From: a virus
Lineage: Duplodnaviria > Heunggongvirae > Uroviricota > Caudoviricetes
Length of the DNA: 40,184 nucleotides
IMG/VR virus record: IMGVR_UViG_2563366911_000003
Reading direction: 5' to 3' (one strand)
The notes under the pieces are model-generated. The model searched no databases, was not told where the DNA came from, and worked only from the letters and a program-made list of their open reading frames with translations. A program made the translations under genes and the position numbers. Shown here piece by piece: positions 18,215 to 18,906 of the stretch. How positions within the stretch are numbered: the stretch's first letter is position 1; each line of letters begins with the position of its first letter.

Positions 18215-18218
18215 TTCA

Positions 18219-18563
18219 ATGACTCAAAACTATGAACTGATTGTGAAAGGGATCCGCAATTTTGAGAATAAAGTTACGGTAACTTTAGCGTTACGGGACA
18301 AAAAACGCTTTGACGGTGAAATTTTTGACCTGGACATCTCGCTGGACCGTGTTGAAGGTGCCGCGCTGGAGTTTTATGAGGCAGCAGCCAGAAGGAGCAT
18401 CAGACAGGTCTTCCTGGATGTTGCTGCCGGGTTATGTGAAGGGGATGAGCAGTCACCGGAAAAGCGCCCCATAATTTTAGAGGCGCAGGGTGTGTGGATA
18501 ACCTACAAAGGAAAACTGCCGGGAAGAATTACTGGTTCACTGAAGACTCCGCCGAAATGGTAA
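18219..18563 (+). CDS. Hypothetical protein inserted between holin and endolysin (possibly YdfR-like)
   Basis: 114-aa ORF starting 5 nt after the holin stop; family guess is from memory. Confidence 0.45.
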   Translation: MTQNYELIVKGIRNFENKVTVTLALRDKKRFDGEIFDLDISLDRVEGAALEFYEAAARRSIRQVFLDVAAGLCEGDEQSPEKRPIILEAQGVWITYKGKLPGRITGSLKTPPKW

Positions 18564-18801
18564 TTTCACCAGCATATTTTTCTTCCAGTAATACCGCCAG
18601 CCACTTGAAAGAATTTTGTTGTTGCTGGGACCATTTGGGGTTGAGTGATTCAAGCTGGAGCGATGCCAGTGTTGGTTGCATTTGTTCCTTGGGAATTGAG
18701 AATGCCAGATATGAAAATGCGACAGTAAGGGCATTTACATCATCCCGAAGCTTGGAAATGCAGTCGAGCAACTCCTGTAGAGAAATGGTGCTATTGTCCA
18801 T
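18529..18801 (-). CDS. Hypothetical protein, antisense to the lysis operon
   Basis: 90-aa minus-strand ORF with a strong RBS (agagagga) about 7 nt before its ATG; its 3' end overlaps the previous gene by ~35 nt. Confidence 0.4.
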   Translation of the reverse strand: MDNSTISLQELLDCISKLRDDVNALTVAFSYLAFSIPKEQMQPTLASLQLESLNPKWSQQQQNSFKWLAVLLEEKYAGEITISAESSVNQ

Positions 18802-18906
18802 AAATAATCCTCTCTATTGTATTTAACTATTCCTTGCCTGATTCAACAGGCCGGGACAGATAAACATATCCAGGGTTCAGAAACCGATAAATCCTGATAA
18901 ATATCC

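Follow-up and report, generated by a model that had tools for sequence, protein, structure and literature searches.

A YdfR-family gene and a convergent antisense gene as a candidate moron-like pair between the holin and endolysin genes of a tailed phage

In the 40,184-nucleotide viral sequence analyzed here (the window; Caudoviricetes, IMG/VR record IMGVR_UViG_2563366911_000003), the holin and endolysin genes are separated by 690 bp that hold a YdfR-family gene and, converging on it from the opposite strand, a small antisense gene. On balance, we lean toward reading this interval as a mobile, moron-like pair of convergent accessory genes that does not belong to the core lysis machinery. The two genes are not new, being already catalogued as sequences, and neither is functionally characterized. 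Two observations are new here: alignment with a related phage shows the segment from 18471 to 18890 as exchanged between otherwise homologous cassettes, and the antisense family, phrog_2411, pairs with a convergent partner in other Enterobacterales phages. The order holin-YdfR-antisense is annotated in RefSeq and is carried by the viable phage Chlobot; a literature search on the accessions, the PHROG identifiers, and the name "ybl58" returned no papers.

As far as can be read from sequence, the flanking genes have the features of a pinholin/SAR-endolysin cassette. Upstream lies a 71-aa S21-type class II holin of the essD/essQ kind (17999 to 18214, plus strand; PF04971, "Bacteriophage P21 holin S," E=1.2e-34), with an M1/M4 dual start read from its MKSM sequence; RefSeq labels a 100% identical record "phage lysis protein EssD." Downstream, the R21/RrrQ-type endolysin (18907 to 19440, plus strand; PF00959, E=1.3e-24) displays the E35-D44-T50 triad and an N-terminal Gly/Ala-rich, SAR-like segment, from which SAR behavior is predicted, and it has solved relatives in the PDB (3HDE/3HDF for R21 and 4ZPU for RrrD). 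Rz and Rz1 follow the endolysin gene (PF03245 and PF06085 matches).

The initial annotation had placed two genes between the pinholin and the SAR endolysin, and both open reading frames proved to be real genes. The plus-strand gene (18219 to 18563, 114 aa) starts with ATG behind the Shine-Dalgarno sequence GGGGAGAG, 4 nt past the holin stop. The minus-strand gene (18529 to 18801, 90 aa) also starts with ATG, and its Shine-Dalgarno sequence AGAGAGGA lies 7 nt upstream, with a GAGG core at about 18809 to 18812. Their 3' ends overlap by 35 nt (18529 to 18563), and the ribosome-binding site of the minus gene is conserved, so that the description of a convergent, overlapping gene with its own translation signal holds. 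It is also right that this gene runs against the late operon, and it needs transcription independent of it. Residues 81 to 90 of the antisense protein, encoded within the overlap, are disordered in the AlphaFold2 model (pLDDT <50), and it is probably the YdfR tail that constrains the overlap.

Profile searches, which had been proposed for both products, assigned each to a family. The plus-strand product (RefSeq WP_001774431.1, "YdfR family protein") belongs to PF07041 (DUF1327), scoring 143.9 bits against a Pfam gathering cutoff of 25, with residues 1 to 112 on model positions 1 to 92 of 93, and it matches phrog_406 over its full length (E=8.8e-68); NCBIfam and PADLOC gave no match. Its AlphaFold2 model contains three β-strands and a helix at residues 5 to 73 (pLDDT 64 to 86), followed by a low-confidence tail with a hairpin at 92 to 109. 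Neither the sequence profile nor, below E=0.2, a fold search with this model found a match in the PDB. Among the best 120 of the 323 family matches with a source name, almost all come from Escherichia or Shigella, and in the lambdoid phages and prophages of these hosts the gene lies directly 3' of the S21-type holin.

The expectation that a pinholin gene normally adjoins the SAR-endolysin gene turned out to be only partly true. The YdfR N-terminal domain is present in 101 of the 438 phage records having an S21-type holin and absent from the other 337; the premise fails because YdfR is a frequent and already named occupant of the junction, K-12 Qin included. What our comparison of related holin-endolysin junctions adds is that the segment with the antisense gene is rare among these phages, being carried by just 3 of the 438 records; in 98 of its 101 records, YdfR occurs without the antisense gene. 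The initial annotation had weighed its reading against a nonconserved minus frame next to a core lysis gene; we found a plus gene that is indeed widespread, though accessory and not core, and a minus gene that is conserved.

Experimental information exists for the K-12 allele of YdfR. This 103-aa protein is soluble and nontoxic, binds the catalytic N-terminal half of RNase E in two-hybrid and copurification assays, through a surface mapped to residues 1 to 72, and copurifies with RNA, as does RapZ; its overproduction caused no growth defect (Fig. 5A of that study) and changed few transcripts (PMC13232886). Residues 1 to 72 are common to the K-12 allele and the 114-aa allele of the window.

The antisense product (RefSeq WP_000370546.1, "hypothetical protein") is an acidic protein (pI 4.4) that matches phrog_2411 over residues 1 to 90 of 90 (E=4.3e-59), a family with the conserved core ELLDxIxxLRxxVNxLxVAFSYLAFS...ES. 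AlphaFold2 predicts three helices (8 to 34, 38 to 52, and 59 to 75; mean pLDDT 79). Pfam, NCBIfam, and PADLOC gave no match, and a search of the PDB and BFVD with the model found no similar fold below E=0.2. The gene is present in 1,221 of 5,426 complete Escherichia coli genomes, ST131 among them. Remote homologues from other genera match the phrog_2411 profile (E=2.5e-17, 1.9e-33, and 4.5e-10) and are recognizable at 26 to 36% identity where the DNA is unalignable; the family includes relatives in Citrobacter, Serratia, Sodalis, and others, with the predicted three-helix architecture in common.

A frame of 90 aa is by itself not beyond chance: the list of open reading frames also contains a 112-aa frame antisense to the endolysin gene and, mirroring the minus gene, a 110-aa plus-strand frame at 18494 to 18826. 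We considered that the minus frame might exist by chance and that the true feature might be this mirror frame or a noncoding spacer, a reading that we reject as scarcely credible. Its one argument is that pooled pN/pS is equally low in the mirror frame (0.25 versus 0.35 in the minus frame), with per-site synonymous counts of 10 versus 9; this ratio is uninformative on the strand because the two frames share their wobble positions, and we discarded it as a strand test. The choice was settled by frame integrity and by the nature of the replacements. Across five diverged lineages, with amino acid identity falling to 76%, the minus frame remains 90 aa long, its ATG and Shine-Dalgarno sequence are conserved, and its replacements are conservative (K/R, L/I, and V/I). 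The mirror frame has no ribosome-binding site, suffers internal stops or loss of its start or stop in lineages where the minus frame keeps its length (L084, L086-088, L089-091, and L093-095), and accumulates radical changes (W to R, W to stop, G to E, and S to I). PGAP, PHROGs, and independent gene callers all select the minus frame, and remote homologues were found for its product only. This comparative evidence shows the minus frame to be a selected, genuine protein-coding gene. Nonsense mutations occur in 3 of 94 loci, and such alleles persist beside an intact ydfR.

Evidence that the interval is accessory comes from phage mEp460 and the K-12 prophage Qin (essQ-ydfR-rrrQ-rzpQ/rzoQ), which share with the window an S21-type holin, an adjoining YdfR gene, an RrrQ-type endolysin, and Rz/Rz1, but carry a 103- to 104-aa YdfR allele with another C terminus and no antisense gene. 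Over its first 84 codons, ydfR is about 95% identical to the mEp460 gene; the homology stops at 18470 and resumes at 18891. Between these breakpoints, 420 bp replace the 102 bp of mEp460 and comprise the region encoding the YdfR tail (PIILEAQGVWITYKGKLPGRITGSLKTPPKW; 18471 to 18563, plus strand), the antisense gene, and its leader. The G+C content of this segment is 0.43 (0.37 in the leader), compared with 0.48 to 0.52 in the holin gene, the N-terminal part of ydfR, R, and Rz, a modest difference. The ydfR stop of Qin falls within the start of the endolysin gene, whereas here a 105-bp spacer precedes R. Other rearrangements have also occurred: in phiSTEC1575-Stx2k, the same holin-ydfR-antisense block stands before another lysis cassette (Phage_holin_8, Phage_holin_3_7, and an M15 peptidase), and in one lineage ydfR is 5'-deleted while the holin, antisense, and endolysin genes are retained.

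Phages 2H10, PhiR63_1, and the PhiR12 series have the same layout at this junction, in which a holin is followed by a YdfR of 183 or 169 aa with ITGSLKTPP, a convergent, overlapping putative antisense gene of 86 to 88 aa, and an endolysin. There, however, the putative antisense gene is phrog_2572, and YdfR has an extra domain of about 64 to 70 aa after the motif. We tried phrog_2572 as a relative of phrog_2411 and found no detectable relationship (hhalign probability 0.3%). Since this family also converges on the longer YdfR alleles, the 3' end of ydfR is a recurrent site for antisense cargo.

In every phage context that we sampled, phrog_2411 genes lie on the strand opposite the late genes. 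Four of the five arrangements have them converging on a late-strand gene with the extreme C terminus I[TF]G[SD]L[KR]xPxx, and these motif-bearing pairs occupy the holin-endolysin junction, a position upstream of the holin (Citrobacter copies), or the inside of the tail operon (between gpM-like and gpL genes); another copy adjoins terminase and late genes. When the YdfR tail was compared with the C termini of the partners, its score was reached by 0 of 5,000 shuffles for L109 and by 6 of 5,000 each for L118 and L099, and the conserved residues are encoded by different synonymous codons. The 85-aa partner gene at L104 lacks the motif. Within the YdfR family, alleles 116, 176, and 183 aa long also have ITGSLK; the link between tail and antisense protein is not exclusive, because the 183-aa allele of 2H10 pairs with phrog_2572. 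No convergent partner accompanies the chromosomal phrog_2411 copies of Serratia, Sodalis, and another host; the Serratia gene sits between dinI and bssS, co-oriented with its neighbors. A scan of species-representative genomes yielded two loci only, and a search for P0186 in viral contigs gave no match. The 238-aa Citrobacter partner resembles DUF1327 at its N terminus by eye; without Pfam support, we did not assign it to that family.

The region upstream of the antisense gene (18802 to 18890, minus strand) travels with it, even where the downstream late gene differs. It contains the GAGG core, an imperfect hairpin at about 18820 to 18866, and a box, CCCTGGATATGTT, at about 18863 to 18875, which is also present ahead of homologues in Citrobacter and other phages in the form CCCTGG(A/T)TATG(T/A)T and includes a -10-like TATGTT. 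The consensus hairpin is long, imperfect, and conserved (-17.9 kcal/mol); compensatory changes are absent among the six Escherichia variants and occur at 5 of 8 pairs in the non-Escherichia copies, and the motif GGATGGCTGATTAAC is flanked by three different complementary stems. Rfam holds no family matching the leader or the overlap. Upstream of the antisense gene, neither the window nor four homologous contexts showed a σ70 consensus promoter, and a search by eye for LexA, σE, and σ54 motifs gave nothing convincing; a LexA-like match in L096 was simply the hairpin. As signs of a dedicated promoter, the box and the structured leader are suggestive only.

A candidate intrinsic terminator of the antisense transcript lies inside ydfR (18460 to 18486, minus strand), 43 to 69 nt past the antisense stop, with a GCGCCUC/GGGGCGC stem, a 9-nt loop, and UUUU. 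It appears in the minimum-free-energy fold and is conserved in the Escherichia variants, among which it shows no covariation and a weakened stem in two lineages; the coding sequence by itself could account for its conservation. The mEp460 breakpoint at 18470/18471 coincides with the boundary of this stem-loop. In L096 and L109, the homologous gene is followed by clearer terminator-like hairpins. On the minus strand, a consensus terminator occurs only past the holin gene (17659 to 17636).

Of the three roles initially offered, that of a moron fits the minus gene best, given its place in a 420-bp segment that is present or absent, the lower G+C content, the conserved leader and ribosome-binding site of its own, and the antisense homologues elsewhere. 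In lambda, the bor gene is located just past Rz, in the orientation opposite to the late genes, and lysogens reportedly express it. Like bor and other lambdoid morons, the antisense gene is small, deviates in G+C content, is present or absent among conserved late genes, opposes them in orientation, and has its own translation signals; insertions of its relatives are seen at several late-operon positions. It differs from bor in lacking a lipoprotein signal. No consensus promoter was found for it, and its terminator is a candidate only; unlike classic single-gene morons, it has a conserved convergent partner gene or tail. We propose that it would be a moron-type unit with its own nonconsensus promoter and structured leader, transcribed when the late genes are off, in the lysogen or soon after infection. 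Once Q-antiterminated late transcription ran into it head-on, the unit would be shut off; that transcription would also produce the partner protein, whose conserved tail may be functionally tied to the antisense product, in the simplest form by binding or neutralizing it. Such a pair would be cargo within the lysis cassette, outside the holin-endolysin-spanin machinery.

The location of the pair invites another interpretation, in which one or both of the two proteins tune the pinholin or the release of the SAR endolysin, in the manner of antiholins or the Mu releasin. Mu is said to provide a precedent for extra regulators in SAR-endolysin cassettes. The tight spacing of ydfR behind the holin gene, the overlap of its stop with the endolysin start in Qin, and the block that moves together ahead of a different lysis cassette are all in line with this idea, as is an envelope-integrity screen, cited in PMC13232886, in which a K-12 ydfR mutant was scored. 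We nevertheless regard it as unlikely. Inspection of the two sequences revealed no signal segment and no hydrophobic stretch of transmembrane length (GRAVY of -0.19 and -0.33), the longest such segment, LTVAFSYLAFSIP, lying inside the predicted helix bundle, whereas known regulators of pinholins and SAR endolysins work at the membrane or in the periplasm. YdfR is missing from most of the S21-type records and 5'-deleted in a lineage that keeps both lysis genes; phrog_2411 genes and their partners also occur in the tail operon, upstream of holins, and, in Serratia, on chromosomes with no lysis genes nearby; and the late promoter cannot coexpress the antisense gene. Less probable again is that the antisense RNA is the functional product, damping leaky late expression or setting the holin-to-endolysin ratio, with the reading frame secondary. 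The convergent units with their 35-nt overlap, the position of the sole minus-strand consensus terminator past the holin gene, and the structured, conserved leader would suit such an RNA. Selection, however, is visible at the protein level, in a 90-aa frame with conservative replacements across 24% divergence and in members recognizable where their DNA no longer aligns; moreover, the candidate terminator lies close behind the stop, and the Serratia chromosomal homologues face no opposing gene.

The suggestion of a toxin-antitoxin-like or abortive-infection pair, with one product toxic and the other neutralizing it, fares worse still, and we think it improbable. Small linked genes with overlapping ends on a mobile element, co-occurring across genera, are what one might expect of such a system, but no toxin, antitoxin, or defense family was matched in Pfam, NCBIfam, or PADLOC, and the genes are convergent instead of sharing an autoregulated operon. 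Because a lysogen would not express the late-strand partner, a toxin made constitutively would go unopposed there. Further, K-12 YdfR is harmless when overproduced (PMC13232886), YdfR usually occurs alone, copies of the antisense gene exist beside a 5'-deleted ydfR or with no partner at all, and its nonsense alleles persist beside intact ydfR.

Returning to the moron-like pair, a more elaborate and quite speculative version, to which we give little weight, would make it a toggle between lysogeny and lysis. The lysogen would produce an acidic three-helix effector from a leader-bearing mRNA, for example an exclusion, anti-defense, or host-modulating factor; late transcription would silence the gene, and the partner would remove the remainder. 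For the last step, the ITGSLKxPxx tail could bind the protein, or the YdfR fusion could act as a RapZ-like adaptor passing the leader RNA to RNase E. The comparison with RapZ-type adaptors is a functional analogy only, resting on the binding of K-12 YdfR to the N-terminal half of RNase E and to RNA: YdfR is unrelated to them in sequence and fold, no target RNA is known, and the data come from the 103-aa allele, whereas the window carries the 114-aa one.

The antisense gene is found in about a fifth of complete E. coli genomes and YdfR in about a quarter of S21-type records. Their recurring pairing and the tail motif shared in several genera turn two "hypothetical proteins" into one testable unit, and the recurrence at unrelated late-operon positions argues against labeling them lysis genes from position alone. 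Should the pair have no measurable effect, it would be one more ordinary moron. If, on the other hand, it consists of an effector expressed in the lysogen and a late antagonist, a small and widespread module would be added to the cargo functions of prophages, and the reported contact between YdfR and RNase E would gain a biological context.

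An E. coli lambdoid prophage of the Rac type, matched at 100% in NZ_CP151005.1, makes up the window. On its plus strand, an S21-type holin gene (17999-18214; PF04971) is followed by an ORF of 114 aa (18219-18563) and, beyond the antisense-gene region, by the lysozyme (endolysin) gene (18907-19440; PF00959; solved relatives R21, 3HDE, and RrrD, 4ZPU), Rz, and Rz1. The 90-aa antisense ORF (18529-18801, minus strand) has AGAGAGGA 7 nt ahead of its ATG, and its final 35 nt run across the 3′ end of the plus ORF; the ORFs of the window bear out the positions and description of both in the initial annotation. 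Upstream of the cassette lie two plus-strand tRNA genes (17069-17141 and 17148-17219; Thr and Gly according to the RefSeq record), and two plus-strand terminator-like hairpins (17895-17910 and 17938-17951) stand immediately 5′ of the holin start, the expected place of a late promoter/terminator (pR′/tR′-like) region. Downstream of the lysis genes, the potassium transporter gene trkG (within 20021-21496, plus strand) directly follows Rz/Rz1, an arrangement shared with K-12 Rac, and a ynaK fragment comes after it in the matching RefSeq record. The window prophage is a fuller Rac relative, retaining the holin, ydfR, and endolysin genes absent from K-12 Rac.

The plus ORF is a YdfR family member: it matches Pfam DUF1327/YdfR at 143.9 bits (cut-off, 25), the phrog_406 match spans its full length, and RefSeq labels the product “YdfR family protein.” The initial annotation regarded both genes as extra at this junction, but the position of ydfR is ordinary. 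The order is essQ-ydfR-rrrQ-rzpQ/rzoQ in the K-12 cryptic prophage Qin, where the ydfR stop overlaps the rrrQ start, and holin-YdfR-lysozyme in phage mEp460. Since 101 of the 438 records with this holin type in the phage collection encode the YdfR N-domain, including many Stx1a and Stx2c phages and BP-4795, YdfR is a frequent accessory of S21-type cassettes, neither an oddity nor a core component. What the initial annotation set against its own reading, a nonconserved minus ORF and a plus gene belonging to the conserved lysis core, thus holds only in part: ydfR is widespread, yet accessory, and the minus ORF is conserved. Among the best 120 of 323 family matches, named members are nearly all from Escherichia or Shigella, and C-terminal alleles give proteins of 103/104, 114, 116, 176, and 183 aa. 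The AlphaFold2 model of YdfR shows a three-stranded sheet and a helix (residues 5 to 73; pLDDT, 64 to 86), the C-terminal 45 residues, including a hairpin at 92 to 109, being of low confidence; neither a fold search nor a sequence-profile search against the PDB found a solved structure resembling it. Our literature search found functional data on YdfR only in PMC13232886: two-hybrid and copurification assays detected binding of the K-12 protein to the RNase E N-terminal half, DNase-resistant nucleic acid was corecovered with it, its overproduction altered few transcripts and was not toxic, and a ydfR mutant was scored in an envelope-integrity screen.

Over its entire length, the antisense ORF matches phrog_2411 (E=4.3e-59); its RefSeq entry is WP_000370546.1, “hypothetical protein.” Because the length of an ORF is in itself no proof of coding in this window, we compared 94 related loci, representing 25 to 29 distinct sequences. 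A mirror plus-strand ORF of 110 aa (18494-18826) has its third-codon positions in common with the minus frame; its pooled pN/pS is 0.25, against 0.35 for the minus frame, and the per-site synonymous counts are 10 and 9, respectively, so that these measures cannot choose the strand. The low value of the mirror ORF is misleading, dN/dS being no arbiter between antiparallel frames with common third positions. The strand is decided by ORF integrity and replacement type, which do discriminate. The minus frame has exactly 90 codons in five diverged lineages, with amino acid identity down to 76%, and its replacements are of the K/R, L/I, V/I, and E/D type; the mirror ORF is broken in four diverged lineages, by internal stops or loss of its start or stop, and its replacements are radical. 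Nonsense mutations in the antisense gene occur only in three singleton loci, all near the reference, and its Shine-Dalgarno sequence and start codon are invariant. A profile search found homologues in other genera, at 26 to 36% identity, that match the same PHROG. Judged by this conservation, the minus-strand ORF is a real gene, and the chance-ORF reading was rejected.

Its product is acidic (pI 4.4), with predicted helices at 8 to 34, 38 to 52, and 59 to 75 (mean pLDDT, 79) and then a disordered tail; fold searches with the model against the PDB and BFVD found no match below E=0.2. The gene is present in 1,221 of 5,426 complete E. coli genomes, ST131 included, and in only 3 of ~50,700 phage records (Chlobot, vB_EcoS-783R2, and phiSTEC1575-Stx2k). 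No paper mentioning it was found in the literature search.

Comparison with related junctions, as the initial annotation had suggested, revealed a segment that is replaceable between homologous flanks. Homology with mEp460 ends at 18470 and restarts at 18891, enclosing 420 bp in the window versus 102 bp in mEp460. The 420 bp comprise the last 31 ydfR codons, the antisense gene, and most of the 105-bp spacer, with a G+C content of 0.43 versus 0.48 to 0.52 in the neighbors. The holin-ydfR-antisense-spacer block also stands in front of another lysis cassette (Phage_holin_8, Phage_holin_3_7, and M15 peptidase) in phiSTEC1575-Stx2k and prophages related to it, where the two join at the start codon of the following late gene. 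The 16 nt preceding the endolysin ATG of the window (18891-18906) hold no Shine-Dalgarno sequence; they are kept in loci L085 and L094 although the next late gene there is a different holin, placing the recombination junction at the ATG itself. In one lineage, the initial 217 nt of ydfR are gone, yet the antisense gene is intact and is the most diverged; in this lineage (L089/L090, 2589-3123), the next late-strand genes after the lysozyme gene are a ParE-like/ParD-like toxin-antitoxin pair, with no Rz or Rz1 gene called there. Insertion sequences interrupt the module in some genomes (L093, about 1339-3927; L087, 4701-5929), an IS66-family element being found inside the antisense-gene leader hairpin, with an 8-bp duplication, while an E. 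albertii prophage has an IS3-type element separating the holin gene from ydfR.

The same ydfR end faces a second antisense gene elsewhere. In 2H10, PhiR63_1, and the PhiR12 series, YdfR alleles of 169 to 183 aa converge on and overlap a putative 86- to 88-aa antisense gene, phrog_2572, between holin and endolysin (L119 1324-1590 in 2H10, unannotated in that record; L120 1364-1624 in PhiR12_2); some records label its product “DUF1823 containing.” Profile comparison detected no relationship between phrog_2572 and phrog_2411, and, judging by these sequences, putative antisense cargo has settled more than once at the ydfR 3′ end.

We also sampled the phage loci of remote phrog_2411 members. The gene lies opposite to the late strand in the Escherichia arrangement and in three others: next to late and terminase genes (L096/097), between the gpM-like and gpL genes of a lambda-like tail operon (L099-102 and L106-107), and ahead of the holin gene in two prophages of Citrobacter (L109-111 and L118). 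In a fifth arrangement (L104/105), of uncertain and possibly chromosomal origin, it is codirectional with a neighboring gene for a membrane protein and convergent with a gene of 85 aa. Four of the five arrangements have it converge, with an overlap of 7 to 35 nt, on a late-strand gene whose product ends in one motif: ...GRITGSLKTPPKW in the window YdfR, ...EKITGSLRAPIKL and ...EKITGSLRVPMKL in the 63-aa (L109) and 238-aa (L118) partners, and ...DQIFGDLKKPPSY in the 71-aa partner (L099). Shuffled sequences equaled the score of the tail match to the window YdfR in 0/5,000 (L109), 6/5,000 (L118), and 6/5,000 (L099) trials; the tail is absent from the 85-aa partner in L104 and present in the YdfR alleles of 116, 176, and 183 aa. 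Since the conserved residues use different synonymous codons between partners, the constraint acts on the peptide. In Citrobacter, only the last four codons (PIKL) overlap, leaving most of the motif outside, so that the antisense coding sequence does not account for it. We infer an ancestral unit of two genes, the antisense gene and a small late-strand one bearing this tail; in Escherichia, this unit would have recombined into ydfR and supplied the tail of the 114-aa allele. A Citrobacter prophage bearing the phrog_2411 gene also contains a match to the Hfq-binding sRNA isrI (RF01392; L109 6929-7026, minus strand; 51.7 bits, above the gathering score).

Two observations qualify the pairing: the tail is present in the other YdfR alleles given above, and phrog_2411 genes on chromosomes lack a convergent partner, as seen in Serratia (where the gene lies between dinI and bssS), in Sodalis, and in a further host. 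The Serratia marcescens homologue (L108 5001-5282; 93 aa) is codirectional with its neighbors and lies beyond an evident terminator that follows dinI; many Serratia species, Sodalis, Acerihabitans, and Chania have relatives of it.

No sigma-70 consensus promoter was found upstream of the antisense gene in the window or in four other contexts. A box, CCCTGG(A/T)TATG(T/A)T, recurs upstream in Escherichia, Citrobacter, and the tail-operon phage, followed in the non-Escherichia copies by a hairpin in which 5 of 8 pairs show compensatory changes; the Escherichia leader forms a long, conserved hairpin without compensatory change. The motif GGATGGCTGATTAAC is bracketed by three different complementary stems in L096, L099, and L104, with a one-base variant in L107. 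Across L096, L099, L104, L107, L109, and L118, a conserved leader ~100 nt upstream of the gene forms a hairpin whose stem takes four different sequences, usually around a GUGGGA loop, its motif GGAUGGCUGAUUAAC being flanked by unrelated complementary stems; an upstream UCAGCC may pair with the GGCUGA of this motif. As Rfam gave no match for the leader or the gene overlap, the leader is a possible unclassified cis-regulatory RNA. On the minus strand, 43 to 69 nt past the antisense stop codon, a GC-rich hairpin with UUUU (18460-18486) is a candidate terminator; its stem-loop boundary is the mEp460 breakpoint, it lies inside coding sequence, and covariation was not seen. Terminator-like sites also occur 3′ of the homologues in L096 and L109.

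Of the roles initially proposed for the two genes, that of a moron is best supported, in the form of a mobile, moron-like convergent gene pair inside the lysis cassette. This reading draws on what was observed here: the families to which the genes belong, the evidence that the minus gene is coding, the segment exchanged between homologous flanks, the pairing that recurs across genera together with the tail motif, and the conservation of the leader. A toxin-antitoxin pair fails its defining tests: neither gene matches toxin, antitoxin, or defense families in Pfam, NCBIfam, or PADLOC, the genes are convergent, each is also found alone, and YdfR is nontoxic. A role of YdfR in lysis timing is possible, against which stand the lack of membrane or export signals in the proteins on sequence inspection, the absence of YdfR from most S21 cassettes, and the location of the pair far from holins in other phages. 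That the minus transcript acts solely as RNA is contradicted by the protein-level conservation of its product.

For the moron-like pair, we propose that the antisense gene would be transcribed while the late operon is silent and be shut off by head-on late transcription, and that its product would be functionally tied to the partner's tail, probably through a physical link. Pfam, PHROGs, and RefSeq between them already catalogue both genes, and more than a thousand genomes carry annotations of the arrangement; hence, this is not a new object but an uncharacterized member of the late-operon cargo (moron) class. Our analysis adds the strand decision, the module boundaries, and the recurrence as a convergent pair with a common tail motif and a structured leader; the pairing with this motif across genera was not previously in databases. 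The significance is modest and would grow only were the two genes shown to form a lysogeny/lysis toggle.
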